A stretch of 64,000 nucleotides of DNA from the NCBI GenBank assembly GCA_039096225.1, contig JBBPEB010000024.1, forward strand, positions 248,001 through 312,000. The letters run 5' to 3'. A model generated the notes under the pieces. It was not told the DNA's origin and made no database searches. It saw only the letters and a list, made by a program, of their open reading frames with translations. Positions 1-49,512 of this stretch are shown here, in pieces. Each line of letters begins with the position of its first letter. Position 1 is the first letter of the stretch. The position numbers and the translations under genes are program-made. The DNA comes from Blastocystis sp. Blastoise. Lineage: Eukaryota > Protista > Bigyra: Opalinata.

Positions 1-39
1 AGGGGATAAACTGGCAGAAAGACTATCAGGAATTTCCAT
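1..39 (-). CDS. 5' end of PLV hypothetical protein (MEIPDSLSASLSP...), counterpart of 45799-46326; truncated by window edge
   Basis: Reverse complement of 45799-45837. Confidence 0.8.
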   Translation of the reverse strand, partial: MEIPDSLSASLSP

Positions 40-308
40 GATTATTTAAACCTTCAAAAGTATTTTTATACAATATATTAAATATACTATTTTTAGTGTA
101 CAGTTCTTCATTTCAGTTGCTAACAAAAGCCTATTGCTTCCAGCTGGAAAATAAGCCAATAAAATAGCTTATTTCGTATGACAAGTCGTCGTCATCGTCT
201 AATTGTGTTTTACTAATTTTTTTATCCAATCAGATTACAGATGCCGACTATACTCGTCATCGAAACACAAATAAAAAATGCTAAGTCGACAAAATTAGCC
301 AATCAAAT

Positions 309-326
309 GAACCTTCTAGAACATTC
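309..326. promoter_or_regulatory. Heat-shock-element-like array (4 alternating GAA/TTC units) in a divergent promoter with CCAAT boxes
   Basis: GAAccTTCtaGAAcaTTC; CCAAT at about 156, 226 and 299. Confidence 0.6.
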
Positions 327-437
327 CATAGAGATTCTACACTGTCTCCTAGAATATTTAATATTCCATTTAAATGTATTATTTATTTCATTTTGATAAA
401 TACAAATTTTCTCTCTGTAACGATATTCGCGATTATA

Positions 438-1061
438 ATGCAATTTAATCTTTCTGCTGATTCCCGTAAATGTCTTCAAACTGTTCGTATGGAACTTCTA
501 AAGAATTCTAAGAAGGCTGTTGAAGTTCATAAGAATGTTCTTCGTGATATTGATTTACATCAGTCTCAATTGAATAGAGAAAAGAATCTATTGGGTATTG
601 CAAAATCTAAAGAACGTCTTGCTTCTTTCGAAGTCGAAAACTATAGATCAGCTTTAAAACGTATAAACGCGGTTATTAAAGGTCTTGAAGATTATGAAGA
701 ATTCGCTGCTGATATTTATACTCAACAACTTAATGAAGAACAAGATATTCAAGATATTATCAATACTGAAGATCTTTTAGAAAGTGATAGAACTACTATT
801 TTATGTTCTGAAGATTCTAAAGAACATTCGAATTCTCAAGATGATGATTTTGATATTATGAAATTCCATATGGAAGATGGATTCCTCTATGATGAAAAAG
901 GTAAAGTTTATTCTTATGAAGTTGTTCATGCTAAGAGTATTAACAAGATTAAAAGAGATCCTTCAAAACAAATGTATTTCTGGGATGGTATTTTATATGA
1001 TAAGAATGGATGGCCTCATTCATGTACATATATTAATAGTCAAGAACCAATTGAAATTTAA
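438..1061 (+). CDS. PLV hypothetical coiled-coil protein (ATG start MQFNLS)
   Basis: Open in both copies with only 2 aa differences; first ATG at 438; TGTTTTGTT motif downstream. Confidence 0.8.
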   Translation: MQFNLSADSRKCLQTVRMELLKNSKKAVEVHKNVLRDIDLHQSQLNREKNLLGIAKSKERLASFEVENYRSALKRINAVIKGLEDYEEFAADIYTQQLNEEQDIQDIINTEDLLESDRTTILCSEDSKEHSNSQDDDFDIMKFHMEDGFLYDEKGKVYSYEVVHAKSINKIKRDPSKQMYFWDGILYDKNGWPHSCTYINSQEPIEI

Positions 1062-1170
1062 TTATTTTTCTTGTTTATTTTTCTATTTTTACTTATAAAC
1101 TTGTAAAAAATCATTGAAAATTGTTTTGTTTATTGTATATACATTTAAAACACTAAAGTATAAAAAGGAT

Positions 1171-1320
1171 GTTCTAGAAGGTTCTAGAAGGTTCTAGAAT
1201 GTTCTCGAAGGTTCTAGAACATTTAAAAATATAAAGTAATATTTACTATTATAGAATGTTCTAGAAGGTTCTAGAAGGTTCTTGAATGTTCTAGAAGCTT
1301 CCAAAACTGACTTCTAGAAT
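1171..1320. promoter_or_regulatory. Two long HSE-like arrays (10 pentamers each, 1171-1220 and 1254-1301) upstream of the primase-helicase
   Basis: (nTTCnnGAAn)x5 with variation confined to the n positions (TA/TC/TT). Confidence 0.75.
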
Positions 1321-1387
1321 CTTTAATATATTATTTGTTTTAAATGTTGTATTATAATTATTTTCATTATTTATAAGTCAAATAATC

Positions 1388-4300
1388 ATGGAAAATTCAC
1401 AAATTCATTTTGTTTATACTTTTGGTTCCTTTAATCATGATAATTCAAAAGATAATCATAGTGAAATTATTATACCAAATCCATTACCATTTTATAAAAG
1501 TCTATTTACTAATTATCAAAATCCAAAAGAATTATTACATTATATTGATTGTACTCCTTGTAATACATCAACTAATTATAGAAGATTATGGTTTGATTTA
1601 GATTATCACCAAATATCTGATGATTTTTCTTTTCTAACAGATTCTTTTATTCATGAATTTATTGAAGAAATATGTAATCATTGTATTCATTATTATAATC
1701 AAGAATTTATTTCGCTTGTGTATACAAAGAAAGAAGTGAATAAGAAGACAGTTCATAATGAAATACATTATTCATGGGGAATTCATATATATACGAATTG
1801 GTTTGTAAATGGTGATTATTTATTTTTCTTATATAATAGTATGATTCTGAATACCAAATTGGTTGATTTATGTAAAACATATAATTTAGATATAAAAGAA
1901 TTCATTGATTATAATGTTATTGGTAAACCCAGAAAGAATAATGGTTGTATGTTTCTTGGTTGTAGTAAAGATAATTCTCCATCTACTTATAAATTATATG
2001 AAGAATATACCAATAAAACATGGAAGAAAATAGATGATGAAATCGATGAACATTATTATTTCAAAACATTATTGAATTATAAGAATGAAGATGATCTTAT
2101 AAGTGATATTATTAATCCTATTATCTTTTCTAAATTAAAACAATATTCACGTTATAAACGTTATTATGCAAGATTAAATAATTGTTCACGTACTATATTA
2201 TGTTCTATACAAGATATTAAAGATATTCCTATGTTGATTTCTACAGATACTATATTGGATACTACAGCATCTAAAGAAGCTTTATTAGAACGATATTTAT
2301 TATTGATTGGTTCTATTGAAGATATGAATTATTTTGAATCTCATAATACTTGGTATAAATTATGTTGTGCAGCAAAACAGATTTGTAATACAACAAGAGG
2401 ATTAGAATTATTTAAAAATTATTCATTACGTTATGGTCATGATCGAAGTGATGATGTAATTGAATCTACATGGAATCATATACAAGTTGATCCTACTCAT
2501 TTATCGAATAATTATATTTTAAAGATATTAATGGAGAATAAATTATTTAATAAAGATGATGATAATGATTTCATATTTATGTCTATTTTAGAATGTATTC
2601 AATCCTTTAATCTTGTAGATTCACAAACATTAGTTATGTTATTTCAATTATTAGAATTTAATGAAATTGTATCTATTATATTAGATAAAGATAATTTTAT
2701 CTTATATACATTTGATGAATATAATATCTTAAGACGTTGTAAGAATAATTATGATATTAATTTCTTTGAAACCAAAATAACTACATTTATGAAATCGATT
2801 GTAGAGAAATTCAAACTATCAAGATTATATTCCAAAGAGAATGAACAACATCAAAAAATAGTTGATAAAATAATGTCTGCTTCTGTTACTAATGAATATC
2901 ATTATAAAGAATGGTTGAATCGTTATTTGAAGACTTATGGTAAATCTTATAAAGAATATTTAGATACGTATATGGTTCATAAAGAACGTGTTATCTATAC
3001 ACAACTTGGTTATTTATATCCAAAAGAATCTACAGAAGAAGATCCTAGACAATATTATATCCAACCATATCATAAAGAAGATATGGTGTTTGAAGATTTA
3101 TTAATTGATACTGAATTTAATGTAAGTTGGAATATTAATAATGAACAGAAAGATATTATCCAATTATTTGAACAACATATTGCAAGATATTGTGAATTCG
3201 ATAAGAAATATGAAAGTATTATGTTACGTATTCTAACCACTGCTTTCTATGTCAATACTCAGAAAACAGTTTCTTATATATTATATGGTAGTACAGGTAG
3301 TAATGGTAAAACAATAACAACTGATTTAATTTCTCGTATTGTAGGTAGTAATCAATGTATTATAGTAAATCCAGATAATTTAGAAGAAACATCTATAGCT
3401 CCTAAGATTGTAGATATGTCTAATAAAACAATGTATTATATGAATGAATTAATAGAAGAAGATGTTACTGGTAGAAAGAAAACATTTAATCCATTCTCTT
3501 CTAAAGTCTTTAAAGAAATAGCAGAAAAGAAAGAAGGTGCTAGTGCTCGTAAATTATTCAGTAATATATTTACAAAAGTTCATTTCACGGGTACTTTATT
3601 TATGACAAGTAATATCCAACCTACTGCTGTGAATGCTGGTCCTATTGAAAGAAGAGTCTGTTTCTTACCATCATGTTGTCGTTATTTCCCTCCTGGTAAT
3701 GCTAATTTATATGAAGATTATGTAGATCATAATTTACCGAAACGTAAACAGACAGTAGAAAAGAGATTGAAACCCAATCATTATGAAATGGATTATACTC
3801 TATCTGATAAATTCTATCAGAATCGTTCTATTATCTTTAGTTATCTAGTAAGTAATTATTTCTATTCTAGTATGCAATTAGATATGCATGAATTAGATAA
3901 TGAATATCATATAAGTGAATGTAAGAAACGATTCTTTGATCGTAGTACAGAAGGATATGATTTGAAATCTTTTGTTGATAACCATATTACTATAGATCCT
4001 TATTATTTGAATGTAGTTACTATTGAAGATATTTTTAATAGTTATAAGAAAGTGAATAATAATAATCAATTTACGATTAAGAAAGATTTAGATAAATTTA
4101 CAAATGCTTTATTTGGTTGTTTAAGTAGTAAAGATACATTTAATTCTATAGATATTGTGAATATTCATAGAAAACATACTTCAAATTTCTATAAGGGAGG
4201 GAATGCTATTGGTATTTGTGGTTTAATGATTGATAATACTTATAATGAATGTGTGGATACAGATTTATTCTGTTTATCCAATTGTTTATCTAAGAAAGAA

Positions 4301-4390
4301 GAAATTGTTTATAGTGAAGATCAATATCATAATACGTCATCAACAAAACGAATTTTAATAGATAATACTTTATATGCTATACCAAATTAA
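1388..4390 (+). CDS. D5-like primase-helicase (AEP-like + PriCT-2-like + SF3 helicase)
   Basis: RRLWFDLD and GIHIY (AEP motifs); TWYKLCCAAK...GLELFKNYS (PriCT-2-like); Walker A YGSTGSNGKT, Walker B YYMNE, motif C LFMTSN, arginine finger ERR. Confidence 0.85.
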   Translation: MENSQIHFVYTFGSFNHDNSKDNHSEIIIPNPLPFYKSLFTNYQNPKELLHYIDCTPCNTSTNYRRLWFDLDYHQISDDFSFLTDSFIHEFIEEICNHCIHYYNQEFISLVYTKKEVNKKTVHNEIHYSWGIHIYTNWFVNGDYLFFLYNSMILNTKLVDLCKTYNLDIKEFIDYNVIGKPRKNNGCMFLGCSKDNSPSTYKLYEEYTNKTWKKIDDEIDEHYYFKTLLNYKNEDDLISDIINPIIFSKLKQYSRYKRYYARLNNCSRTILCSIQDIKDIPMLISTDTILDTTASKEALLERYLLLIGSIEDMNYFESHNTWYKLCCAAKQICNTTRGLELFKNYSLRYGHDRSDDVIESTWNHIQVDPTHLSNNYILKILMENKLFNKDDDNDFIFMSILECIQSFNLVDSQTLVMLFQLLEFNEIVSIILDKDNFILYTFDEYNILRRCKNNYDINFFETKITTFMKSIVEKFKLSRLYSKENEQHQKIVDKIMSASVTNEYHYKEWLNRYLKTYGKSYKEYLDTYMVHKERVIYTQLGYLYPKESTEEDPRQYYIQPYHKEDMVFEDLLIDTEFNVSWNINNEQKDIIQLFEQHIARYCEFDKKYESIMLRILTTAFYVNTQKTVSYILYGSTGSNGKTITTDLISRIVGSNQCIIVNPDNLEETSIAPKIVDMSNKTMYYMNELIEEDVTGRKKTFNPFSSKVFKEIAEKKEGASARKLFSNIFTKVHFTGTLFMTSNIQPTAVNAGPIERRVCFLPSCCRYFPPGNANLYEDYVDHNLPKRKQTVEKRLKPNHYEMDYTLSDKFYQNRSIIFSYLVSNYFYSSMQLDMHELDNEYHISECKKRFFDRSTEGYDLKSFVDNHITIDPYYLNVVTIEDIFNSYKKVNNNNQFTIKKDLDKFTNALFGCLSSKDTFNSIDIVNIHRKHTSNFYKGGNAIGICGLMIDNTYNECVDTDLFCLSNCLSKKEEIVYSEDQYHNTSSTKRILIDNTLYAIPN

Positions 4391-4434
4391 ATTTATATTT
4401 ATTTTTTACTATAAAGAGTTGTTTTGTTTTAAAA

Positions 4435-6231
4435 TTAATAAAATTTAAATTGTATTCCATGAAAATGTTTTTTAGGGACTTTGACTTTAAAGAATGCATT
4501 ACTTTTATGTTTTTTCAATAAACCATGACCACGATGAATAGGTTCTAAAGGAGGCATAGTAGAAAGACTACGTAATGCATAAGTATCTGAATTATTCATA
4601 ACTATAGGTGTAGAATTTTCATCTTGAGTATTCTGTTGCATAAGAGATGCTTGTGTATTCGTTAATTCTGAATCCGTTGTATTATTATGTAAATGATCAG
4701 GTAATAATTGTTTATTACGTATAAAACGATTATAACGATCTCTAGAATTCTCTGGAACTTCTTCAGATTCTAATGAACATCCTACAGGTAATTCAGTTTC
4801 TAAATCGTTTTTATCTGGATAATGATGCTTTAATAGATCTTTATAATATCTTAATGTAATCATTATAGTATCATTATCTGATGAATATTGTTCTAATGTA
4901 GATAATATCGATTCTGATTTCATATTGAAATTCTCTTTACCAAATACATCTTCATAGTCTTCATCATATTGTTCTATACGATCATTAAATCGTTTACATA
5001 AAAATAATAATTTATTCAATTGATTAATTTCTCTTGTATAAGTAATATTATTCATATCAATATGAAATATTCTTGTTTTATTATCTAAATCTTGTAATTT
5101 AGTTGAATGAGAAGATAAATAAGGAGATATATAATTTTCCATATGTGTTGATTGACTATGTAACATCTTCATAATCGAATTTTCAAAGAGTTCTACACCT
5201 TTAGATTCATGTTCTGAATCATTATGTTGGAATTGTGCTTCTCTTGATAATCTATAATAATATTGAGCAAATAAATGTCTTATAATATCACAACCATTAA
5301 TTAAAGAATTATTCTGTTGTGTTTTATAAATCCATCCTAAATGAGGTTTTATATATTCATCACCAAATTTCAAATCACGTACTTTACCACCATTCTCAGT
5401 AACAAATAAATAATGTCTTGGAAATAAACGTAAGGATCTAGCTAAGACATTTAAATATTCTTCTGATAAATACTGATAAGTAGGATATTCATTCTTACCA
5501 ATTTCAAATCGATTCTTTGTATCATTCACATGAATAGTCAAAGTATTTAAATCAATATAATTGGTTGTTCTTCTTAACGATAAAGGAATTTGTTGACCAC
5601 GAGTATAGATTACACAATCATTATAATCATTACGAGCACATAATGTATCATAAGTTAAAACTAATAAATAACTATTCACATAATATAAATCATTAGGATT
5701 CTCTAAATAATTCTTTTTGGTGATATTAATGATTTCTCCCCAATCAGCTTCACAATTAATAATTTTCTGAGTGATTTCATAATGTCTTGAATAAGTAGCA
5801 TCAATTTGTAAAGAACCCCATAAATGTTCCCATTTCTTTATATTTTGTGGAGTAAATGCTTTATAATTAATGATATCTTCATCATCTGTACAAATAGATA
5901 TATTCTTCATTATATAAGTAATCATTTGCATATAATTAGCTACAGTAGTATTGGATAATCCACCTTGTTGTCCAGGAGCTTCTGTTTGTGTATGTTGCAT
6001 AACATTTTGAAATTGAAATGGATCTGTTAACACTTCTACACAAAAGAATGGTTCTTCCATATCATCTATTTGAATTCGTTCTTCATTACGAAATTTCTTA
6101 CATATTGTCTTTATCCATTTCTTCCAATTTATACTTGTTGATAATTGTATTTTCTTCCAATGTAATAATTGATCTATACAATTTGTAAAGAATTCTTCAC
6201 AATCTTTATCTGAATAACCTGTTGATTGCAT
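4435..6231 (-). CDS. Tyrosine recombinase-family protein 1 (598 aa)
   Basis: ARND(R)...NDTKN(K)...YLF...IIRH(R)...MLHSQSTHMENY(H,Y); motif order matches 50079-51014. Confidence 0.75.
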   Translation of the reverse strand: MQSTGYSDKDCEEFFTNCIDQLLHWKKIQLSTSINWKKWIKTICKKFRNEERIQIDDMEEPFFCVEVLTDPFQFQNVMQHTQTEAPGQQGGLSNTTVANYMQMITYIMKNISICTDDEDIINYKAFTPQNIKKWEHLWGSLQIDATYSRHYEITQKIINCEADWGEIINITKKNYLENPNDLYYVNSYLLVLTYDTLCARNDYNDCVIYTRGQQIPLSLRRTTNYIDLNTLTIHVNDTKNRFEIGKNEYPTYQYLSEEYLNVLARSLRLFPRHYLFVTENGGKVRDLKFGDEYIKPHLGWIYKTQQNNSLINGCDIIRHLFAQYYYRLSREAQFQHNDSEHESKGVELFENSIMKMLHSQSTHMENYISPYLSSHSTKLQDLDNKTRIFHIDMNNITYTREINQLNKLLFLCKRFNDRIEQYDEDYEDVFGKENFNMKSESILSTLEQYSSDNDTIMITLRYYKDLLKHHYPDKNDLETELPVGCSLESEEVPENSRDRYNRFIRNKQLLPDHLHNNTTDSELTNTQASLMQQNTQDENSTPIVMNNSDTYALRSLSTMPPLEPIHRGHGLLKKHKSNAFFKVKVPKKHFHGIQFKFY

Positions 6232-6298
6232 TATTAAAAATTAAATTATTTATAAACAAAACAAATTTATTATTAATATTTTATAACATTTCATAGAA

Positions 6299-6721
6299 TT
6301 ATAAATGAAGAGATTGAACAATAGAATCAACACTTATATTTAATTTCATTAATTGAACAGCTAATTCTTGTATTGATTCATTTTGATTCGAATCAATTTC
6401 TTCTAATTCATTCAAGACTTCTGATATATGTTTGACTTCTTCTTCAATAATAGTTTGTTGTATTTTCATTGTCTTATAATAGACTTTCTTTGTTTGTGGA
6501 TTACAACAATTACAATGAATATCTATATTTTTAACAATTAATTGAAAGAATTCAGTTGATTTTTCAAATAAACATTTTATAGCTTTTATAATAAATTCTA
6601 ATAAAGTATTTTTCTTTTCTATTTCTTCTTCGGATAATGTGGTTGTTGTTGAACTATCTGAACTTGTTGAACTTGTACTTGATAAAGAATGTAAGGATTC
6701 AGATACAGATTTAGGCTCCAT
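6299..6721 (-). CDS. PLV hypothetical protein (Ser/Thr-rich N-terminus, HCNCC, coiled C-terminus)
   Basis: ATG ORF bounded by AT-rich spacers; downstream TGTTTTGTT motif on its strand. Confidence 0.7.
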   Translation of the reverse strand: MEPKSVSESLHSLSSTSSTSSDSSTTTTLSEEEIEKKNTLLEFIIKAIKCLFEKSTEFFQLIVKNIDIHCNCCNPQTKKVYYKTMKIQQTIIEEEVKHISEVLNELEEIDSNQNESIQELAVQLMKLNISVDSIVQSLHL

Positions 6722-6790
6722 TTTTTAATAATTTTTAAATGAATAATATAACAAAACATTTTTTAATTTAAATGAAATGAATTAAAATAT

Positions 6791-9277
6791 TTATATATAA
6801 GAGATAGTTAATAAAACAACACAAGGATAATCACATGTTATAAAGAACATATTATCATGAGGTAATAACTTTAATAATTTACGATTACAATAATAGACAT
6901 TCTTATTGATCTTATTTGATATACCTTCATATTTAATACCATTAGAATAGTAATAAGGTAGATTTGTAGTATCTATAACATGAATATTATTCTCATATTC
7001 ATTAGTAAAGCATCTTAATGAAATAGGATATAAGTAATCAGTGGATTGACCATACACTGATATAATTTGTATATTCGTTAAGTATTGATATCCATAGACA
7101 TTGGTTTTCTTCAATTCATAAATTAAATTCTTACTCGTACTAAAATCACAATATACTTCATCATAAGCTTTGAAACGTATATCACTACCATTCGGTTCAC
7201 ATATATTACAAATTATATTTCCTTTGAATAATTCATCAAATCTTAAATCTATATGATGATCAATTGTAATTGGAGAATTTATATTACTATAAGTAACATA
7301 TTTATCAGATAAAGGAAAACTAAATGTAGGATAATAAGATCCATTTATATATCCAGTACATAATTTAGATGCATTTGCTTGGATTGTATCTGTATCATTT
7401 TGAATAATAATATCTTTCAAGATCTTATTTTGAATATTCAATGTAGGATATTCAGCATAGAACTGTGTGTCTGATGTTTGACAATTCAAACATAATTTCT
7501 TAATGGTTTCACTTGGTTGAATCGTATCGACTGTATCTGAGAATTCTAAGAATCCTCTTAAAATACAATTATTATTGAAATTCACATATTGTTTATTTTT
7601 ATCAGTATATCGTATAATAATATCTTGAATAGTATTTAAATAAGGAGACACATTAATATTCATAATATCATGAAATTCATTATTGCCTTTATAATTATTC
7701 ACATTAAATGAATATAAAGAATTCTGACTATTATCTACTATATTCGATTGAGCTATTAACATTCCTTTTGGACGACTACTATCAATATTATGAACACCAT
7801 AATTAATAATTTCATCATAACCTAATTTATTATAACCTAAGATTTCACCTAATTCTTGAGCTTGAGAAAAATCTATATGATAACTATCAGTATAACACTT
7901 ATAATTACCATCTAAATCTAATGTATTCAAATCAACAGGTATACCTGATAATAATTGTTTACCATAAGATACATGCCAAGCAAAACATCCTTGTTCATCA
8001 TAAACCAGATCAGGTCGTATATTATGTAGAGCACCACGATACTTAAATAATGAATGTTCTATATCTGTGGCTGTAAATGTCCATGAACTTGAATTATAAT
8101 CGTTGTACGTTATTAAATACAAAATATAACCCTCTTTATCACCGTGAGTTTCTACATCTTTTGATATAGTTAAATTACATACCTCAATAGATCCATTGAT
8201 CGTATTTTCTAATAAATCATAGAATTCTTGTTCAGTATATTCTCCTGGAGGCATTGTGTATGTAGTTTCCATTCGACCACCCATTCCACTTATTTGTCGA
8301 ATAATCATTGTATTATATCCATCTTCAACTCTAATGTATGTTTTGATATTAAATATATTATCATCTTTAACTGGATTCTTAATTCTTTGTAAAACAATTT
8401 CTGGTTTATTTTCAGTGTATATTAGTGTTTCATTACCGTCAAATAAACCAGTAAATAAACTATTTTCCATTTTCAGAATCATATTTATATTTGGAGAAGT
8501 TACATCTGGAAAATAAAAATCATGTTCTGCATTAGTTACACATTCAATTGTTCCATCACTACTTTGTGTAGGAATATCATGAATGAACTTACTAAATACA
8601 CCGCTATTTGCATATTCTTTTAATGAATAAGTCCCTGTTGTTGTAACAGGAATATTAAAAGAAGTTGTTTTGGGTTTATATATGGTTATAGTATCATCAT
8701 CATATTTCATCATCAGTCGATTACAGTTATCTAACCATACAGAAGATACCAAACAAACAGCGATCCACCAAAATTCTATATCTGTATACGTTCCTTTTGG
8801 GAAATTAAAACCACGTCTTGTTTTAGCAATATGAAATTCACAATAGAAATCATCTGTATTTATTGTGACTGTTGGAATCTTAATATATTGAATAGTAGGA
8901 TCAATATCAGGAGATTCTTTTATTACTGGTCTATCACATATATCAAAATGACATAGTTCTAATAATTGTGGAATGGAATAATTTTTCTGATCTAAAGTGA
9001 TTGTATATACGGAACTATTACCATTGACACGAGTATTTATATATTTGAATATTTGTGTTTTTGTGAAAGTATCAAATAGAGGCACACTTTCACTACCAAT
9101 TAAATTAAGATCAATATAAGAAATGATATTTTTAGTGATATCAATAGAATTCGATAAATGTATATTGAATTGATTATCAATACAACGAACATCAATAGGG
9201 ACTACATGTGTTTTAATACGAGTATCCTTCTCTTCTAATGAAGTCTGTTCTTCTTGATTATCTTCATCAAGTTCCAT
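6791..9277 (-). CDS. Large minor-capsid/penton-like protein with repeated insertion domains
   Basis: Repeated PxGxY motifs (FPKGTY, MPPGEY), LGEILGY, and IQDIIIRYTDKNKQYVNF, paralleling 12330-12995. Confidence 0.6.
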   Translation of the reverse strand: MELDEDNQEEQTSLEEKDTRIKTHVVPIDVRCIDNQFNIHLSNSIDITKNIISYIDLNLIGSESVPLFDTFTKTQIFKYINTRVNGNSSVYTITLDQKNYSIPQLLELCHFDICDRPVIKESPDIDPTIQYIKIPTVTINTDDFYCEFHIAKTRRGFNFPKGTYTDIEFWWIAVCLVSSVWLDNCNRLMMKYDDDTITIYKPKTTSFNIPVTTTGTYSLKEYANSGVFSKFIHDIPTQSSDGTIECVTNAEHDFYFPDVTSPNINMILKMENSLFTGLFDGNETLIYTENKPEIVLQRIKNPVKDDNIFNIKTYIRVEDGYNTMIIRQISGMGGRMETTYTMPPGEYTEQEFYDLLENTINGSIEVCNLTISKDVETHGDKEGYILYLITYNDYNSSSWTFTATDIEHSLFKYRGALHNIRPDLVYDEQGCFAWHVSYGKQLLSGIPVDLNTLDLDGNYKCYTDSYHIDFSQAQELGEILGYNKLGYDEIINYGVHNIDSSRPKGMLIAQSNIVDNSQNSLYSFNVNNYKGNNEFHDIMNINVSPYLNTIQDIIIRYTDKNKQYVNFNNNCILRGFLEFSDTVDTIQPSETIKKLCLNCQTSDTQFYAEYPTLNIQNKILKDIIIQNDTDTIQANASKLCTGYINGSYYPTFSFPLSDKYVTYSNINSPITIDHHIDLRFDELFKGNIICNICEPNGSDIRFKAYDEVYCDFSTSKNLIYELKKTNVYGYQYLTNIQIISVYGQSTDYLYPISLRCFTNEYENNIHVIDTTNLPYYYSNGIKYEGISNKINKNVYYCNRKLLKLLPHDNMFFITCDYPCVVLLTISYI

Positions 9278-9372
9278 ATTTTTCTAATTTATTAAATAAT
9301 AATTTATATTAATTTATAAAAATTATTTAATTTTATTTATTTATTAATATTTTATTTAAAATAAAAAGAAAT

Positions 9373-10845
9373 ATGAGAATCTTAAGAATTAAAGATAATA
9401 TTCCTATTCAAAGTGATACTGATATTCTATCAAGTCCTTATATCTTTCAATATCATTGGACTAATGTGGATAATACTTATATCAATTTCAATCAATCCTA
9501 TTTGGATCTTACTGTCAAGGCAACTGTCACAGATAAAGCTGGACCAGTTTCTGTTTATTTAGATGAAACAGGTACTTCTGTTAGTTTCACTTATGATCAA
9601 TTATGTCAATATTTCTTGGATCAATTAGTTCAAAAAGCAAATATTTATTCTATTATTGATTCCACTGATGTTGAAATGGTTTATACATTACCTGATGGAT
9701 CTGATCGTGCTTTGAAATATGAAGAAAACTGTACACATGCTTCACGTGGTCGTAAAATGATTTTATTAAAAGATATCAGTAAGAATGATTTAGAAAAATC
9801 TATGTATGGTGAAGATTTATCTGCAGATACTTATGAATTGAATTCTATTCGTTATATACGTGCACATCCAAAACAATCTATTCATATTGCTATTCCTTTA
9901 TATCTTATTAGTGGTTTAGGTGTTGATGGAGATTCTTTAATATTAACTAAACATTTCAATATGTTATTTAGAACTAGTACTATTGAATCCTTAATTGATA
10001 ATAATATGAGTATTTATTTCAAGAATGGTGGTAAAGATCTATCAACACAATGGTTACATCTAACTGATGAAAAATGGTTTAAGACATTTGAATTGGAATC
10101 AGCTACTATGAATTTAATGACTTATAAAGATATTCAATTCCAAACGAATGAATTATATAAAACTATACCTACATGTATTCAAGTCGATTATCAAAATACA
10201 AGAATAACTAGTGATCATTTCAATATCAATAGAGCTTTACCATTTATACCTGAATATATATTATACTGGTTTACAAATGGGTATAGTTCAACAACTATTA
10301 GTAATGTAGCTAGTCCATCTGTATGGCCTAAATATCAAAGTTGTTTGATTGGTGATGTTCAAATGTTCCCTCAAACTGAATTCCCTACTCAAATGTATTA
10401 TCATAATCTTACTACTAAAGGTCATGTCTTCAATAATGAAGAAACTGCTAGTTTATCTTGTCCTAATAAAAATCTATATTGTTTATGGGCTGATAATTCA
10501 AATCCTGAAACTATTCTTAAATATGATGAATGGATTAAACATCCTATTTATATTATTCCAACTAAAGCATTAATGAATATCCAATCAGATAGTGGTATAG
10601 AAATGAATTTTGATTGTAATCTAGATGTTCATGATATTGAATATGGTCATGCTAATTCATCCACTGTTCCTGATGGATATACATGTACATATAATGAAAC
10701 TACTAAAATATGGACACCTGACACTGGTGCTTCTTATGCCGTTGCTTCTCATGCTGGTATTTATAAACATATTAATACTGAACTAAATGAGAAGCATCCT
10801 TATACATTACATATGATTGCTGTACGTAGTGTACGTGATATTTAA
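9373..10845 (+). CDS. Putative double-jelly-roll major capsid protein 1
   Basis: YINFNQSYLDL, NIYSIID, IPLYLISGLG; collinear paralogue of the next ORF; size and position next to penton and ATPase. Confidence 0.65.
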   Translation: MRILRIKDNIPIQSDTDILSSPYIFQYHWTNVDNTYINFNQSYLDLTVKATVTDKAGPVSVYLDETGTSVSFTYDQLCQYFLDQLVQKANIYSIIDSTDVEMVYTLPDGSDRALKYEENCTHASRGRKMILLKDISKNDLEKSMYGEDLSADTYELNSIRYIRAHPKQSIHIAIPLYLISGLGVDGDSLILTKHFNMLFRTSTIESLIDNNMSIYFKNGGKDLSTQWLHLTDEKWFKTFELESATMNLMTYKDIQFQTNELYKTIPTCIQVDYQNTRITSDHFNINRALPFIPEYILYWFTNGYSSTTISNVASPSVWPKYQSCLIGDVQMFPQTEFPTQMYYHNLTTKGHVFNNEETASLSCPNKNLYCLWADNSNPETILKYDEWIKHPIYIIPTKALMNIQSDSGIEMNFDCNLDVHDIEYGHANSSTVPDGYTCTYNETTKIWTPDTGASYAVASHAGIYKHINTELNEKHPYTLHMIAVRSVRDI

Positions 10846-11015
10846 ATTTAATATTTCTTACTTACTATTCTTAACGTTAACTTGTTTAATTAATTCTATT
10901 CTATTCTATATTCCAATCATTTGTTTTGTTATGAATTTCAAATAATTTTATAATTATAAAATATCATTATTATTTTATTTTTTATTTAAAAAATACATAA
11001 ACAATAATTATTAAC

Positions 11016-12239
11016 ATGGAAGGATTCCCAAGACAATTCTTACCTTCAAAGGCAAATCAAACTATTAAACCTGTACAAATTCCTATTCTGGTTTCTACTA
11101 GTCAGGATTTATTAAATCAACCTTATCCATTTGAATTCTTATATAATTCAGTTGATAGTCCTTTTATTGATTTCAGCAATTCATTCTTAGAACTGAATTT
11201 CAATATTACAACAAATGCAGCAACATCTAGTTCTGTTGTACAACATTCTAATATCTATAGTATTATTGATAAGATTACTACAGATCTTACGTTTGTATCT
11301 CCTACGGGTCAAGATATTCTTATTAATTATTCTGAATCTTCTATTGAATCCAGTAAAGCAAGAAAATTTGTTACTATTAAAGAATTAAGTAAAGATGAAA
11401 TTGATAAATCTATGTATAGTATGACAGAATGCTTATATAATACAACCTTAAGTAGTATTTCTGGAATGCAAAGTTCTACTAAAGCTCAAGTTATTATTCC
11501 TTTATCTCTTATTACTGGTCTTGGTACATTTGATTGTGCTATTAAAGTAAAATCTTTGAAGATGCAATTCGTTACAAATTATTTAAAGAATCTATTTACA
11601 GGTACGACTAAAATCACTGCATTAACTTTTGATCGTGTTTATATTCATCTTCAACAAATCTATGATATTAATTTTGGTAATGATCCACGTGCTTTGATTA
11701 AATGTATTCCTAATAATTGTCAAATATCTGCATTTACTACACCTGTTTATTCAGAAACATTCACAACAGCAGGTAAACCAACTCCACAACAATTCTTATC
11801 CAATAGAAGTGTTGTTTTCGTACCTGATTACTGTATGTTATATTTTACAACTCAAGAGAAGAGTATGATTCCTATTAAGACTGAATTATTGAAGATGTGT
11901 CAATTCCAAATTGGTGGTCAAAATATCTTACCAAAGACGGATTTCCCTACTACGTATAAAACAACGAATCCATCACAAATTATTCCTAATGCTATGCTTT
12001 ATAATACTTGGAGATGTAATAGTCATCCTCAATCTCCTTTAAACGGTGAGAAATGGTATGAACAACCTATTTATATATTCCCTATTTCAAGTGTTGTTGA
12101 TGTCAATACTCGTAGTGGTTGTGAAGTTAATATCTCCTTATTAACTGAATATAATGGTGCAAATATTACTAGTGGTACTTATACTTTATATGCTCATTTT
12201 ATATTTGTTAAATTTGTTAGAGATGGTGCAACCAATTAA
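11016..12239 (+). CDS. Putative double-jelly-roll major capsid protein 2
   Basis: FIDFSNSFLEL, NIYSIID, KSMY, IPLSLITGLG, PKTDFPT, WYEQPIYIFP shared with MCP1. Confidence 0.65.
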   Translation: MEGFPRQFLPSKANQTIKPVQIPILVSTSQDLLNQPYPFEFLYNSVDSPFIDFSNSFLELNFNITTNAATSSSVVQHSNIYSIIDKITTDLTFVSPTGQDILINYSESSIESSKARKFVTIKELSKDEIDKSMYSMTECLYNTTLSSISGMQSSTKAQVIIPLSLITGLGTFDCAIKVKSLKMQFVTNYLKNLFTGTTKITALTFDRVYIHLQQIYDINFGNDPRALIKCIPNNCQISAFTTPVYSETFTTAGKPTPQQFLSNRSVVFVPDYCMLYFTTQEKSMIPIKTELLKMCQFQIGGQNILPKTDFPTTYKTTNPSQIIPNAMLYNTWRCNSHPQSPLNGEKWYEQPIYIFPISSVVDVNTRSGCEVNISLLTEYNGANITSGTYTLYAHFIFVKFVRDGATN

Positions 12240-12329
12240 TTTAATTATCTAATATTTTCTTTTATCAATTTATACAATTTAATAAATATTGTTTTGTTTA
12301 TCAATACATAATTAATTTATTTAATAAAA

Positions 12330-12995
12330 ATGACATCAATATCTCATCTAAGTAAAATTACAAGTCAAATCTGTCATGAACAATTCAATTATACTTTGGA
12401 TTTAGTAGGTAAAAATATAACTCATATCAATACATTAGTGAATACAAGTGATATCATTAATATTCCATCTTTCAGAATAACTGAAAATAATGCAACAGCA
12501 CATACATTTCCAGCTGGTAACTATTCATTGGAAGAATTCTTTGAGAAATTAATTGAACTTGGTAAAGATATGACAATATCTGTATCTGGACAAACGAGTG
12601 CATTCTATTATGATAAAGAAACAAAAACATTTGGTACGTATAGTGGATTCAGAAAAAGTCTTAGTAATAAAGAATTCTTTTATTATTTAGGATTAGATGA
12701 TGAATACTTTAATACACCAATTACTTACAGTGATGAATATATATCTAATAATATTTCATGGTATAAGATCTATATGTTACGTGTGTATTGTGATATTATT
12801 AATAAAGATAATGATTTGATTTCTATTCCTTTATATGCTAAACAAGGATTTGATAATACATTTGCTTTAAGTGATTTATCTATTCCATGTATTGATGGTA
12901 AATATACAGATATCCAATGGGAAGTATATGATCAATTAAATAATCCAATTGATTTATCAAATACAAATCTTTATATATACTTTACTGCATCTTAA
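12330..12995 (+). CDS. Minor capsid protein (penton, single jelly-roll)
   Basis: FPAGNYS...YLGLD...LRVYCDII...IQWEVYDQLNNPIDL, a pattern typical of Polinton/PLV pentons. Confidence 0.75.
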   Translation: MTSISHLSKITSQICHEQFNYTLDLVGKNITHINTLVNTSDIINIPSFRITENNATAHTFPAGNYSLEEFFEKLIELGKDMTISVSGQTSAFYYDKETKTFGTYSGFRKSLSNKEFFYYLGLDDEYFNTPITYSDEYISNNISWYKIYMLRVYCDIINKDNDLISIPLYAKQGFDNTFALSDLSIPCIDGKYTDIQWEVYDQLNNPIDLSNTNLYIYFTAS

Positions 12996-13063
12996 TAAAA
13001 TCATATATTTATCATTAACTTATCATTAATTATTTTTTGTTTTGTTGATTAAAATCATATAAA

Positions 13064-14101
13064 ATGGTGAATAAAATAAATCCATTAAAAGAAACACGTA
13101 AAGGATGCGGAGTCTTAGAATTTAAATATGGAAAATCACATCATAAAACATATGAATCAAAATTCATATTGATTATTGCAAGAACATTCTCAGGAAAATC
13201 TTTCTTAACTGTGAATCTCTTATGTTCTATGGATCTTAAAAATAAATATAAACAAGTCACAGTAATTTGTCCTGATGCATCCAATAAGAATGAATGTTAT
13301 ACATCCTTTCAAGATATTTGTGAACATGCTGGAATTGATTATAAATGGTATGATTCTGTAGATGATAAATTTAAAAAGATTAAAACTGTTGATGAATTAG
13401 TCAATACATATAAATTACCAGAACATAATTTTATTGTATTGGATGATATCTATCCATTATCTAGACAAACCAAACAACTGATTGTATCTATATTATCTAA
13501 AGGTCGTCATTATAAACAGAATGCTATTATATGTCTTCAAAGTCATACAGATGTTACCAATCAATCTATATTAAGTCAAGTATCTCATTTCTTTATTAAT
13601 AGTCAAATCTTAAAACGTGATCCTGGATTCTTACCAGATAAATTAAAGATTATGCCATCAAATCTAAATGAAATTCTTACAGATGAAGAATTAATGAATG
13701 ATCCACATCAATTCTTTATGTTAAAACAAGGTAGTGATGATTTAACAATATGGACTAATCCTGATTGTGGTAGTAAACAGAATGTATATAAGATGGTAAA
13801 GAAAAGGAAATGGACAGAAGAAGATAGTGAAAAAGAGAAACGAGAAGAACAAGGTGAAGTATCAGGTAGTGGTATTAAACGTCCTAATGAACATATATCT
13901 ACATATGAAAAGAAAATGAAGAAGTTTTTACCTGTTGAAGAAGAAGTCTCATTGAAAGGTATTGAACGAGATGAAAAAGATAAACCTAAAGAATCCATCT
14001 TACAAATCATACAAGATCAAATCATACAAGATAGTCAACGACGCATTTTCAATCCTTATTTAAATAAAAAACATTATTCTGGTTATCCTTCTTTTCATTA
14101 A
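13064..14101 (+). CDS. A32/FtsK-HerA-type genome packaging ATPase
   Basis: Walker A ARTFSGKS, Walker B FIVLDD, KGRHY...ICLQ motif. Confidence 0.9.
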   Translation: MVNKINPLKETRKGCGVLEFKYGKSHHKTYESKFILIIARTFSGKSFLTVNLLCSMDLKNKYKQVTVICPDASNKNECYTSFQDICEHAGIDYKWYDSVDDKFKKIKTVDELVNTYKLPEHNFIVLDDIYPLSRQTKQLIVSILSKGRHYKQNAIICLQSHTDVTNQSILSQVSHFFINSQILKRDPGFLPDKLKIMPSNLNEILTDEELMNDPHQFFMLKQGSDDLTIWTNPDCGSKQNVYKMVKKRKWTEEDSEKEKREEQGEVSGSGIKRPNEHISTYEKKMKKFLPVEEEVSLKGIERDEKDKPKESILQIIQDQIIQDSQRRIFNPYLNKKHYSGYPSFH

Positions 14102-14154
14102 TTTTTTTATATTTTAATTTGTCATATAAACCATAATTATTTTATTGTTTTGTT

Positions 14155-15192
14155 ATGAGTTCAATTACAAAAAGATATTTAAAACAAAATTGTGATCCAC
14201 GATTATTTGGAGGATCACCACCAAAATCAAATAGACGTGATCTTTATCATAAACGTTATGTAAGATATGGAGGAACTGGTTTTGAAGAAATTGTTAGACA
14301 ACAAGCTAAAGATGCTGATTGGGCTGATTTTAAAAATGGTGTCTATACTGCATTACCTATTTTAGGTACATTAGGAGCATTTGCTGGATATAATTATTAT
14401 CAGAAACGTAAAGAACAAAAACGTCAAGAAAAAGCAAAAGAAGAAAAGAAAAGACAATTTGAAGAACATATTGAAGATGCTAATAGAGATGATGAATTAT
14501 ATAATGATGATGCTACTTATCAACCAAAGAGAATAACAAGAAAAATGATGGCTGATGATGATAAAGATTATAATAATGCAAATCTTGAAGATGAAAATTA
14601 TGATGATATATTTGGTCAAGGTATACATAGAAGGCATCAAAAACATCGTAAAGAACATGGGAGTCACCGAGAAAAAGAAAAGAAAACAAGTAAATTCGTA
14701 ACTCCTCAAATAAAAATTATTGCTAAGAAGGCTATTCGTTCTAGTAATGTAAAGTCTAATAAGAAGAAATTACAAGATATTAAAGAACGATTACCTAAAA
14801 ATGATGAGCATGTGTCTGTACGTGATATTGTTAATGTCGTTATCGATAAAGAATATCCTATGGATCCAAAACAAAAGCATTCTATTATTGCGAATACTGC
14901 TATTAAAACTATTAAAACGATTGTTCCTATTGTAGTGAATGCATTAAAATACTATTATCCTTCTCTTGGTATCCCTATTGATTTCGCTTATAATATGATT
15001 ACTACTGATGATGATAAGAAACGTAAAGAAACTGCTGATAACTACTTTAAAAATCCTAGTGGAAGTGGTGTTACAAAAGAGAATGCTGAACGTTGTGGTG
15101 GTGCTCTTGTCAACTCTACATCCTTTGATACTACTACTAATTTAATTATTAATCTTGTTCAATTCTTCTTAAAAAAATTTCATTTAAATTAA
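14155..15192 (+). CDS. PLV hypothetical basic protein with a short hydrophobic segment; candidate core/virion protein
   Basis: LPILGTLGAFAG segment; GG and GxG motifs; Lys/Arg-rich. Confidence 0.7.
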   Translation: MSSITKRYLKQNCDPRLFGGSPPKSNRRDLYHKRYVRYGGTGFEEIVRQQAKDADWADFKNGVYTALPILGTLGAFAGYNYYQKRKEQKRQEKAKEEKKRQFEEHIEDANRDDELYNDDATYQPKRITRKMMADDDKDYNNANLEDENYDDIFGQGIHRRHQKHRKEHGSHREKEKKTSKFVTPQIKIIAKKAIRSSNVKSNKKKLQDIKERLPKNDEHVSVRDIVNVVIDKEYPMDPKQKHSIIANTAIKTIKTIVPIVVNALKYYYPSLGIPIDFAYNMITTDDDKKRKETADNYFKNPSGSGVTKENAERCGGALVNSTSFDTTTNLIINLVQFFLKKFHLN

Positions 15193-15268
15193 TTATTTTA
15201 ACTTTTATTATTTCATAATTAATTATTTGTTTTGTTATATAATTATTTTTAAATTAATACAATAAATA

Positions 15269-16066
15269 ATGCAAAGTAATTTAGGAGATAGTGTAACTCT
15301 CTATGATATTTTATCAAGAAATCAGAAAAAACAATCTTGGGATCCATGGTTACCCAATTCATATATTTGTCAAGATGAACAACCTGTACAACCATTAGCA
15401 CATGATCCTAATGCACAAGGATCTATGTATAGTTCAATGGCAGTTCAAGCATTAAGAAATCATGGTCAATCACCTGAAGATATGTTTATAGCTACTATGA
15501 ATTCAGCTAAAGCTAATGGTGATACAAATAGATATACATCCATGTTATCTCAATGGCAAACGAATTATGGTATTCCTACTACAAGTAAGATATGGTATGA
15601 TGCTAGTAATCCTAATAACTATCAATATGAAAAACTTATTCACACTGTAAGAAATCCTAATGAAGACTATACAGTGAAACCACAACCAGAATCCATGAAT
15701 TCTAATTTCACTGAAGAACAACCCAAACCAGAACCTGAAAAGAAACCTGAACACGAAAAGAAACCAGCTAAAGAACCTGAAACTAAACCTGAAACTGAAA
15801 AGAAACCATCTAAAGAAGATGATAATACTCCAAAGAAATTTGAATTCGATATGAATTTACAACAAGATACCGACGAAAAAACATATTATAACGCCACTTA
15901 TGGAAAGTATAAATTCAAATGGTATACTGATGGATCTATTGAATGCACCAATAGTGAAGATTTCGGAAATAATAATATATTCTACAAAAATAAAACATTA
16001 TTTGTTGAAACTGATGATAAATCAATGGATATTGACGATTATTTAAAAAATACTCATAATAATTAA
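15269..16066 (+). CDS. PLV hypothetical protein with KPE repeats
   Basis: 265-aa ATG ORF in the co-oriented cluster. Confidence 0.75.
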   Translation: MQSNLGDSVTLYDILSRNQKKQSWDPWLPNSYICQDEQPVQPLAHDPNAQGSMYSSMAVQALRNHGQSPEDMFIATMNSAKANGDTNRYTSMLSQWQTNYGIPTTSKIWYDASNPNNYQYEKLIHTVRNPNEDYTVKPQPESMNSNFTEEQPKPEPEKKPEHEKKPAKEPETKPETEKKPSKEDDNTPKKFEFDMNLQQDTDEKTYYNATYGKYKFKWYTDGSIECTNSEDFGNNNIFYKNKTLFVETDDKSMDIDDYLKNTHNN

Positions 16067-16154
16067 TGATACTATTAATATACTAACTATATAATATAAA
16101 TAATTTCTTTTTTTTGTTTTGTTTTAAAATTCATAATTATTTTATTAAACTAAA

Positions 16155-17639
16155 ATGATACAAAGTGCTCGTTTAAATGTTTCAAATAAAGGATTAGTAG
16201 GCGTAAATCATCGTGCTACTGGTCATGAATATCGAAATTATATTGTTCCAGGATCTATTCCTGATGGAGAAGAACGTTATCCAATTAATTATTCTATTGC
16301 TCCAAATTCATTATATGCTGTTAAGAAAATTGAAAGTAATATGGTCAATAGAGCAACATCCAATCCATTTTTCTCCTATTTATCAGAAACCAGACAAGAT
16401 ATTATACAAAGTTCCTTAGAAGAATCAGAAGAAAGTGAACCAATAGATGAAGGATCTGGGTTATTACCTGATGGTAGAATTCCAAGGAATTTCACAAGAA
16501 AACTCATTTATGCTCATGATTATGTCTTACCTTATATGAAACAAAATCATATGTCTGATTATGCTAAATATTCTAGATTATTAAATCCTCGTACAATTGA
16601 TAGTGCAATTGATTTTACTAGAAGAGATCGTGATGGTTATTTATATTCTAGAGGTGGTAATTTATTTTCTAATATTTATCACACTGTAAGTGATGTATAC
16701 AATGTGTCTGATAAATTAACTGGAGGTATTAATAATATCACTCATGGAATAAGTAATGCTGTTGATTATGGTGCAAATAAATTTAAAGATCTCAAGAATT
16801 GGTGGAGAGATATTAATGTTGATCCAAAAGAAGGATTCAATGATATTAAAGGAAAACTTGTAAGTGATAGAAATAATTTATATGATAATTGGAAATTAAC
16901 TGATGATAATGAAGCTAAGAAAAAGAATAAATTATTAGCTGATAACTATTTTAGATTTGCTCATATGTCAGGTAATGATACTAAAGAACAAAGACTTAAC
17001 AAAACTAAATCTTTAGAAGATCAAGCAAAAACATTTCATAAAAATTATATTCCCTATGCAGAAAACCCTACATTTGTTAATAAAGTTGTTAATACTGTAA
17101 CAAATGTAGGAACACCAATTGTTAATGGTGTTAAAAAAGTTGCAAACTCTATTGTTAGTGGTACAAAGAACGTATTTAATAGTTTTTCTGATTGGTGGTA
17201 TGGTAAAAATCCAGATGAAGAAATACCACAAACAGAAAATCCAATAGAAACAAATAATAATGTTATACCAACTTCTTCATCTACTCCTGATACTCTAACA
17301 CAAGAAAATATTCATAATATTACTATAGAAGATTCAAATCCTCCAAATTTAATTCCTCTTATGAATGATCCTACTGTTCCTTTACCTGACACTGTTCCAA
17401 TGTCTCAAGCAATAACGAATAAATTCACTCCAAATATTACACCTGTAGCCCCTATTTCTAATCCAGTAGAAAATGTCACTCTTGAAAATAAAAGAAATAA
17501 AAAAGAAGATGATGAATTTCAATCATTTGATGAAGATGATGGTGAGGTATTTTATGATCTAGAAGAAGGTAATGGATTACGTAGAAAAAGACGTATTTCA
17601 AAAAATAAAAAATTAAGAAATAAACGTAGAAAACATTAG
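16155..17639 (+). CDS. PLV hypothetical protein; amphipathic repeats and very basic C-terminal tail
   Basis: 494-aa ORF; EGSGLL, SRGGNLF, EGNGLRRKRR... Confidence 0.8.
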   Translation: MIQSARLNVSNKGLVGVNHRATGHEYRNYIVPGSIPDGEERYPINYSIAPNSLYAVKKIESNMVNRATSNPFFSYLSETRQDIIQSSLEESEESEPIDEGSGLLPDGRIPRNFTRKLIYAHDYVLPYMKQNHMSDYAKYSRLLNPRTIDSAIDFTRRDRDGYLYSRGGNLFSNIYHTVSDVYNVSDKLTGGINNITHGISNAVDYGANKFKDLKNWWRDINVDPKEGFNDIKGKLVSDRNNLYDNWKLTDDNEAKKKNKLLADNYFRFAHMSGNDTKEQRLNKTKSLEDQAKTFHKNYIPYAENPTFVNKVVNTVTNVGTPIVNGVKKVANSIVSGTKNVFNSFSDWWYGKNPDEEIPQTENPIETNNNVIPTSSSTPDTLTQENIHNITIEDSNPPNLIPLMNDPTVPLPDTVPMSQAITNKFTPNITPVAPISNPVENVTLENKRNKKEDDEFQSFDEDDGEVFYDLEEGNGLRRKRRISKNKKLRNKRRKH

Positions 17640-17711
17640 TTAATTTTAATTTGTTTTATTTATTATTATTTTTAAACTAAACAATTTGTTTTGTTATTTA
17701 TAAAAATTAAT

Positions 17712-17882
17712 TTAAAAATCAATAAAATTCTTGATATAATCTTCATATTCATCATCTTCACTTACAGTATGAAAACTGTCCATATCAGAATCACTATCAC
17801 TTAATTCATCAACTTCAAAATTTCCATAAGGTTTCCAAGTACCTTCTTTATAATCTGGAGCAAATTGCTTTGGAGAATCCAT
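17712..17882 (-). CDS. Small acidic PLV protein (56 aa, MDSPKQF...)
   Basis: ATG at 17882, directly downstream of the HSE array at the TIR inner edge. Confidence 0.5.
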   Translation of the reverse strand: MDSPKQFAPDYKEGTWKPYGNFEVDELSDSDSDMDSFHTVSEDDEYEDYIKNFIDF

Positions 17883-17928
17883 AATAAATAGTATAAAAAT
17901 AGAAAAAAACGCATAATACAATTTGTTA

Positions 17929-18828: not shown

Positions 18829-19338
18829 TGCCTTAATTATTTACGAGTTGACATTTGTGCCTTAATTATTTACAAGTTGACATTTGTGTCCTATTTTTTT
18901 ACGAGTTGACATTTGTGCCTTAATTATTTACGAGTTGACAATTATAATTTAATTTTTTACGAGTTGACAACTATGATTTAATTATTTATAAGTTAAAAAT
19001 AGTAATTTAATTATTTCAGATTTTTTAAAGAAAAATATTTTTTTTTCAGGTTTCTTTGTTAAAAATAGTCATGAAAATATTAAAAATAAAAATACAAATA
19101 AATTATTCATAATTGTCAACTCGTAGATAATTAAATCATAGTTGTCAACTCGTAAATAATTAAGACACAAATGTCAACTCGTAAAAAATTAAGGCACAAA
19201 TGTCAACTCGTAAATAATTAAGGCACAAATGTCAACTCGTAAAAAATTAGGACACAAATGTCAACTCGTAAATAATTAAGGCACAAATGTCAACTGGTAA
19301 AATGAATGTCTGAAAACTTGACTATCGGGATTTAACCC
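18829..19338. mobile_element. MITE/foldback element with ~28-bp subterminal repeats; left end missing at the PLV junction
   Basis: (TTACGAGTTGACA...) arrays in inverted arrangement; ends ...ATCGGGATTTAACCC|TAA. Confidence 0.85.
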
Positions 19339-20778: not shown

Positions 20779-20820
<42 letters not shown>

Positions 20821-24468: not shown

Positions 24469-24528
<60 letters not shown>

Positions 24529-24965: not shown

Positions 24966-24972
24966 ACTTTTA

Positions 24973-44460: not shown

Positions 44461-44518
44461 CTTATAAATAATGAAAATAAATATGGTATAAAATTCAAAA
44501 CAAATAATATATTAAAGA

Positions 44519-49508: not shown

Positions 49509-49512
49509 AACC

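Follow-up and report, generated by a model that had tools for sequence, protein, structure and literature searches.

Background

Heat-shock elements (HSEs) of cellular genes are contiguous inverted nGAAn repeats with a TTCTAGAA core, about 100 bp before the ATG and with CCAAT nearby (PMC12366260, PMC9148306, 10.1101/306704; this and every other source is cited for the sections covered here). Heat-shock factor (HSF) binds them as trimers, as an earlier note on the DNA analyzed here had stated, and HSF1 favours long contiguous ones (PMC12366260). The closest mobile element to exploit this factor is ONSEN (ATCOPIA78), an LTR retrotransposon with one promoter whose HSE is bound by host HSF and makes it heat-inducible (PMC5056178), in agreement with the same note. 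Among animal viruses, the Qp HSE of EBV, HIV-1 reactivation, and the lytic genes of KSHV and EBV tie host HSF to transcription and exit from latency, through single sites or indirect effects (PMC12366260). The sections of that source covered here make no mention of a protist DNA virus.

Three groups of described protist viruses are relevant. Protist Polinton-like viruses share a double jelly-roll capsid, an ATPase, a primase-helicase, a tyrosine recombinase (YR), a length of 15–30 kb, and terminal repeats (PMC10120064, whose covered sections do not mention Blastocystis). Mavirus and the EMALEs are integrated and multi-copy, and their promoter motifs predict their trigger, the late transcription machinery of a giant virus; the known triggers of endogenous virophages in the sources covered here are giant viruses, acting via matching promoter motifs (PMC10945749). 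The Blastocystis MELD virus of Starrett et al. 2021 is a mid-size dsDNA virus recovered from Blastocystis data, with a PolB and a retroviral-type integrase (PMC8502044).

Here, we describe an integrated Polinton-like virus of Blastocystis sp. Blastoise, found in a 64-kb stretch of DNA ("the window"), with arrays of the HSE type before several of its replication genes. The arrays have the form, core, distance from the ATG, and neighbouring CCAAT boxes of cellular HSEs, yet they reach 10 perfect units, twice in tandem, while worm chaperone probes mostly have 3–5 (PMC9148306). They also front replication genes and are known from their sequence, whereas cellular HSEs are bound by HSF trimers. Unlike ONSEN, the carrier is a capsid-encoding dsDNA virus with separate arrays before several genes, and unlike the EBV, HIV-1, and KSHV cases, a protist virus carries whole arrays. 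Two capsid paralogs, two probable YRs, a terminal hairpin, and the HSE-type arrays set it apart from other protist Polinton-like viruses. It resembles mavirus and the EMALEs in being integrated, multi-copy, and equipped with motifs that predict a trigger, but here the motif suggests a stress factor of the host, and the capsid genes lack it. HSEs have been described for ONSEN and for some animal viruses, and we found no report for Polinton-like viruses in a search that reached subscription journals only to a small extent. Nor did a heat-shock element appear in the top-ranked literature on endogenous virophages and giant viruses, or a passage on integrated viruses in the main text of the Blastocystis genome paper, as far as covered (PMC10690189).

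The element and its genes

The element is a Polinton-like virus, with a double jelly-roll capsid, a packaging ATPase, a protease, a primase-helicase, a single-stranded DNA-binding protein (SSB), and two probable tyrosine recombinases among its set of 19 ORFs. Two partial copies lie in the window (Table 1). Comparison of the window with itself showed that positions 1–1341 are an inverted 98% copy of 44497–45837 and that the right end of copy A recurs at the end of copy B; similarity between the copies stops ~46 bp before the primase-helicase ATG. From these two partial copies we infer that the terminal repeat is inverted in the whole element, with a unit of ~25 kb. Copy A is integrated, since its right end breaks a palindromic 29-bp-repeat element of which an intact copy lies near 24970–25580. 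From A to B (167–1302 vs 44536–45671), 10 of the 14 non-spacer differences change G to A or C to T, consistent with decay of the truncated copy B.

Table 1. Element copies, arrays, and principal genes in the window (array distances are to the ATG of the gene named)
Feature	Position	Strand	Remarks
Element copy A, Polinton-like virus	1–18828		Left part beyond window edge; right end adjoins left-truncated palindromic 29-bp-repeat element
4-unit nGAAn array	309–326		111 bp before orf207; adjoins CCAAT box; divergent promoter common to orf207 and orf175; copy at 45512–45529
orf207	438–1061	+	Array-preceded; no family above cut-off; copy at 44777–45400 (−)
Distal 10-unit nGAAn array	1172–1219		Before primase-helicase; copy at 44619–44666
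Proximal 10-unit nGAAn array	1254–1301		86 bp before primase-helicase; copy at 44537–44584
Primase-helicase, 1000 aa	1388–4390	+	Array-preceded; PHROG 1156 DNA primase, E 2e-9
YR1, probable tyrosine recombinase, 598 aa	4435–6231	−	No array
Second major-capsid paralog, 490 aa	9373–10845	+	No array; HHalign to MCP alignment, probability 100, E 2e-39
Double jelly-roll major capsid protein, 407 aa	11016–12239	+	No array; model pLDDT 74
orf221	12330–12995		Penton (minor capsid) candidate by position only
Packaging ATPase, 345 aa	13064–14101	+	No array; PHROG 2666, E 1e-10; Walker A
Acidic ORF, 56 aa	17712–17882	−	Array 46 bp upstream
8-unit nGAAn array	17929–17966		Inner edge of copy A terminal repeat; 46 bp before 56-aa ORF
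900-bp terminal repeat	17929–18828		98.4% to 51113–52012; closes with 126-nt hairpin
3-unit array	40270–40282		Intron-rich host DNA; chance level
Element copy B	44497–52012		Inverted, truncated; holds arm missing from A in window
orf175	45799–46326	+	C-terminal coiled coil; 269 bp from shared 4-unit array
10-unit nGAAn array	46520–46567		77 bp before SSB
SSB, 197 aa	46645–47238	+	Array-preceded; model pLDDT 79
Adenain-like maturation protease, 177 aa	48975–49508	+	No array
5-unit nGAAn array	49513–49535		95 bp before orf124; between protease stop and 3' motif of protease gene
orf124	49631–50005	+	Array-preceded; Q/N-rich tail; no usable database match
YR2, probable tyrosine recombinase, 311 aa	50079–51014	−	Array-preceded
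10-unit nGAAn array	51103–51150		Inner edge of terminal repeat; 88 bp before YR2

Clusters of the element's proteins point to ~20 copies in Blastocystis sp. Blastoise. Exact look-ups gave 9 Blastoise cluster members for the capsid, 19, all near-identical, for the primase-helicase, and 10 for YR2, on many contigs, and relatives occur on contigs up to 25.9–27.5 kb. Searches for DNA of relatives found none in viral contigs, for which the queries were the ATPase, P0110, and alignments of the MCP and the SSB, and none in genome contigs or a phage collection. The G+C content is 24% for the window and roughly 26% for the element; the former agrees with the 21–23% reported for tortoise Blastocystis isolates.

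Fold comparison upheld the SSB and capsid identities given in the earlier note. The Foldseek matches of the 407-aa capsid model were Sputnik, PBCV-1, iridovirus, and mavirus capsids (lowest E 3e-11), of which Sputnik ranked first, but at a TM-score of 0.45 and 12% identity. The SSB model matched ASFV CP312R (E 4e-6), the Enc34 SSB, and T7 gp2.5. Four of the 87 capsid homologs come from Blastocystis sp. Blastoise (one at 92% identity, the others at 48–51%), further ones are 55–63% identical, and none of the 87 is a named relative from outside this organism. The two capsid paralogs lie side by side and are ~30% identical.

The PHROG match of the primase-helicase spans residues 574–749, the helicase part, with a Walker A-like motif near residue 634; family searches did not confirm a primase domain in its 1000 aa. 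The protease has Atlas feature matches of 0.94–0.96 to clusters in which Peptidase_C5 is found on 13–62% of members. YR1 had no match in family searches, and by eye it shows recombinase-like R, K, RH, H, and Y motifs. In YR2 the motifs are kept in a 42% homolog, and its sole PDB match is XerA at E 0.19. Family searches gave no match for orf221, and orf175 has no homolog outside its host cluster. Neither PolB nor a retroviral-type integrase was detected among the element ORFs, a difference from the Blastocystis MELD virus.

The terminal hairpin (18703–18828 and ~51887–52012) folds at −40.3 kcal/mol as DNA (z = −8.85). Such a hairpin is unusual for an integrated copy and may act as an origin, a primer, or a recombinase site. 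The terminal repeat also has a pair of outward-facing TATA-like boxes (18217–18395). They lie downstream of its array, a CCAAT box, and a TGACG box and could form a promoter that reads out into host DNA or across joined ends. In one sequencing assembly, presumed to be RNA, 8 short contigs fall over 1100–9270 and the longest (1.4 kb) covers the 3' part of the primase-helicase gene; two other runs gave none, and such contigs cannot rank genes.

Inventory of the arrays

We scanned the 64-kb window for perfect runs of alternating GAA/TTC triplets with 2-nt spacers, at a threshold of at least 3 units. Eleven arrays were found, 10 of them with 4–10 units, and all 10 arrays of at least 4 units fall inside copies of the Polinton-like virus. 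The 37.7 kb of repeat-rich window DNA outside the element has no array of at least 4 units. In simulated sequences (Markov orders 1, 2, 3, and 5, with 30 simulations per order), 4-unit arrays numbered no more than 0.13 per 64 kb, and arrays of 5 or more units were absent. Four array pairs are duplicates, so only 6 arrays are independent. The scan recovered, far above Markov chance, the arrays of up to 10 pentamers that the earlier note had listed. What that note took for one array at 44519–44667 does hold arrays, but is really two (44537–44584 and 44619–44666) plus a lone TTCTAGAA, and the 4-unit array at 45512–45529 was absent from its list.

Match to the heat-shock element

With 4–10 perfect units, the 10 arrays have the form of an HSE, defined as at least 3 contiguous inverted nGAAn pentamers. 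To score them we used a matrix of human HSF1 (PMC9148306), not of a Blastocystis factor, with a hit threshold of at least 9. There were 53 such hits in the 26.3 kb of element and 2 in the 37.7 kb outside, and the best 15-mer of the distal array before the primase-helicase reached 13.65 of a maximum possible 14.55. The consensus from yeast HSF ChIP is TTCTAGAAnnTTCTAGAA (10.1101/306704).

The array definition leaves the spacer bases free, which makes them an informative test. The spacer in TTC-nn-GAA is TA in 17 of 22 cases and is modal in 6/6 arrays, and TA is the top of the 10 classes by the matrix. GAA-nn-TTC spacers score a mean of +0.43 on the same human matrix vs −0.52 +/- 0.15 for element dinucleotides, with 4/6 window arrays positive and two slightly negative. 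Counting each spacer type once, the p-values are 0.04 (TTC-nn-GAA) and 0.009 (GAA-nn-TTC). The base 3' of GAA is C in 20 cases, G in 13, T in 12, and A in 4; the HSF1 matrix has the same extremes, with C at the top and A at the bottom. Arrays of the same form at 18 unrelated, partly redundant IMG/VR loci were negative on GAA-nn-TTC in 18/18 cases. Among metagenome arrays, whose labels are partly from Pfam and partly by eye, 1/5 bacterial-looking and 3/5 transposon-adjacent ones were positive.

From these features, the arrays are probably promoter elements for host HSF and likely bind it with high affinity, and HSF binding of some kind to them is predicted with the same, fairly high confidence.

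Placement relative to genes

Measured to the ATG, an array lies 77–111 bp before five genes (orf207, primase-helicase, SSB, orf124, and YR2; Table 1), a promoter-proximal position much like that of the worm hsp HSE probes, which begin 104–124 bp before the ATG (PMC9148306). The 56-aa ORF has a shorter gap and the divergent orf175 a longer one. The remaining 12 of the 19 ORFs, including both capsids, the ATPase, the protease, and YR1, have no upstream array closer than 746 bp. No array overlaps any ORF, and none occurs in the three convergent gaps or in the gap from which orf828 and the second capsid gene diverge. These measurements agree with the earlier claim that arrays stand 5' of the primase-helicase, SSB, YR2, and small ORFs and are missing before the capsid, ATPase, and YR1 genes.

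By function, 3/4 replication or recombination genes are array-preceded vs 0/4 assigned morphogenesis genes (p = 0.14); the latter count becomes 0/6 (p = 0.03) if two unassigned genes are included. The tie between arrays and the replication/recombination class is suggestive only, as it involves few genes and YR1 has no array. From their functions we infer that the array-preceded genes are early. An upstream search for a late promoter found no motif common to the non-array genes except the 3' motif described below and AT-rich words.

Array variation between copies

Between copies A and B, 7/42 spacer bases differ vs 14/1227 other bases (p = 2e-6), so that spacers change ~15x faster than the flanks. 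The triplets show 0/72 changes, which is not below background (p = 0.62). The earlier note had seen that variation is confined to the spacers and took this for selection rather than slippage. The first part is true, though partly built into the array definition; the second does not hold, because shuffling of 10-bp units yields the same pattern and a contrast of selection against slippage fails. The spacer excess itself indicates that repeat shuffling shapes the arrays and that their units are not independent. Probably both processes act: slippage or conversion in 10-bp steps would lengthen and reshuffle the arrays, while selection would hold them in register.

Host factors and transcription signals

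The earlier note had named a host lacking HSF as a refutation of its reading. The host does encode HSF-domain genes, and this refutation falls: the supplement of PMC10690189 counts 2 genes with the HSF DNA-binding domain (IPR000232) in Rus-B (Blastoise) and 2–3 across 8/8 Blastocystis strains. The same source lists 14 small HSPs and NF-Y-type genes in Rus-B; all 8 strains lack HSBP1 and have 7–15 small HSPs, with the reverse in Cafeteria and Proteromonas. We found no HSF entry in the part of the PMC5608401 supplements searched. None of the 19 element ORFs matched HSF or another DNA-binding family in family searches, which gives no support to a virus-encoded HSF domain. A role for orf175 as an HSBP1 mimic was also considered and is unsupported: a search with its coiled coil listed 17 families, none of them HSBP1, and the protein lacks homologs beyond the host cluster.

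Signals at both ends of the genes fit transcription by the host. CCAAT and TGACG boxes flank two arrays, the one at 309 and the terminal-repeat array; TATA boxes are inconsistent. Downstream, all 15 element sites of TGTTTTGTT (between 1122 and 50061) are on the sense strand, 18–92 nt 3' of a stop, and follow 15/19 ORFs, with 2 sites in the 37.7 kb outside the element. This motif resembles TGTTTGTT, the downstream gene element found in human subtypes of Blastocystis. That element is reported as not enriched in tortoise Blastocystis strains (PMC10690189), and the virus may retain a 3' signal that is absent from its present host or placed further downstream there.

Proposed mechanism and alternatives

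In the mechanism we propose, activated host HSF trimers would load cooperatively on the arrays, perhaps three trimers or so per 10-unit array. Bound HSF would then drive the primase-helicase, SSB, YR2, and small regulators via host RNA polymerase II under heat or protein-folding stress. The products of the array-preceded genes would excise and copy the element, and the capsid genes might follow through a second, late signal. Judged from sequence features, HSF-driven activation of the replication/recombination module, tied to stress, is likely, at a level below that of HSF binding itself. That the arrays form a true stress-induction switch of a provirus is a tentative proposal, about which we are slightly on the doubtful side. 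The fullest version is a shade more tentative: an autonomous, helper-free lineage with its whole replication module wired to host HSF, whose ~20 copies may sense proteotoxic stress through the 10-unit arrays, excise, replicate, and yield the 26–27 kb free genomes of metagenomes.

Such a system would matter in several ways. For integrated Polinton-like viruses that have no giant helper virus, the sequence points to a candidate trigger and to exact predicted sites, in a culturable host with ~20 near-identical element copies and only two HSF genes. If true, it would be a eukaryotic counterpart of SOS prophage induction, and, with a tortoise gut host, basking temperature is perhaps the stress sensed. 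The virus would represent an undescribed DNA virus family of Blastocystis, with relatives common in public metagenomes.

HSF need not act through stress. It could serve as a constitutive or developmental activator (basal, at encystation, or by growth phase) or enhance replication from the terminal repeat. HSF would then be the general activator of early viral genes once a cell is infected, not a stress switch for the provirus. This fits all the sequence evidence equally well. HSF1 favours long contiguous HSEs (PMC12366260). Non-stress HSF binding and gene activation are described in yeast and worm (10.1101/306704, PMC9148306), and in worm, with 4120 HSEs and 8 canonical genes, most HSE-bearing promoters are not heat-induced (PMC9148306). 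An array also forms the inner border of the terminal repeat, in the manner of host-factor sites in adenovirus inverted terminal repeats. We nevertheless consider this unlikely: only 2 host genes have an HSF domain (PMC10690189), which leaves little room for a specialised developmental paralog, and in yeast, perfect promoter HSEs are mainly occupied upon heat shock (7/8; 10.1101/306704).

Less probable again is that a viral protein, such as the primase-helicase, YR2, or a small ORF product, binds the TTCTAGAA palindromes in their 10-bp register as origin iterons or autoregulatory operators, with the likeness to HSEs convergent. Arrays before replication genes, one of them in the terminal repeat near a strong hairpin, would suit iterons, as would similar 10-bp arrays in phage-collection loci, and orf124, orf175, orf207, and the 56-aa ORF are candidate binders without a family. 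But both spacer types follow the HSF1 preference, unlike the IMG/VR arrays, the array-to-ATG distance is constant at five genes, and no element ORF has a DNA-binding family match.

A neutral 10-bp palindromic minisatellite, grown by slippage in any intergenic room, would explain the rapid spacer turnover between copies and the similar arrays in bacterial intergenic DNA. It is quite improbable, given six separate arrays with different unit mixes, the array-free convergent and orf828/second-capsid gaps and 37.7 kb of host DNA (for at least 4 units), and G+C-rich spacers that follow the HSF matrix in an element of ~26% G+C.

Finally, a giant helper virus might read the arrays as promoter motifs, in the way described for mavirus-type virophages; Sputnik is the top match to the capsid fold, and the array unit contains TCTA, the core of the CroV late motif. 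This is highly implausible: virophage promoters do mirror giant-virus late motifs (PMC10945749), but such a motif would be expected before the capsid genes, where arrays are absent, the TA of TCTA varies, and the CCAAT boxes and 3' motifs are host-type.

Arrays in other DNA and further features of the window

A metagenome scan for the array pattern gave 72 loci, none of which encodes a relative of the element. Chaperone genes were found near these arrays in 0/99 ORFs (107 were picked, and 8 from four duplicate loci were left out). At two loci (L073 and L087) arrays of the same form adjoin bacterial genes, where HSF is not expected. Perfect 9–14-unit arrays also lie beside copia gag/RT genes and ISXO2-type transposases on metagenome contigs (L026, L039, L066, L068, and L088), and eukaryotic mobile elements may commonly make use of long HSE arrays. 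DIRS-1 is a heat-induced element as well, a point not confirmed in the review searched, in which neither heat nor stress occurs.

The remainder of the window is rich in other mobile DNA. The palindromic 29-bp-repeat element, which is of a foldback or MITE-like type, occurs in two copies (18829–19336 and ~24970–25580) that flank a retroelement ORF. This ORF (19347–24539, plus strand) encodes a non-LTR reverse transcriptase of 1730 aa, whose N-terminus is very long and rich in Asn and whose C-terminus holds an apparent restriction-like endonuclease. An intact-looking Helitron Rep/Pif1 helicase ORF of 1497 aa was identified with Pfam at 28729–33222 on the minus strand. Broken pieces of a DDE_3 (IS630/Tc1-type) transposase lie at 52390–53873 and 61421–61581, with a 160-bp inverted repeat pair ~9 kb apart.
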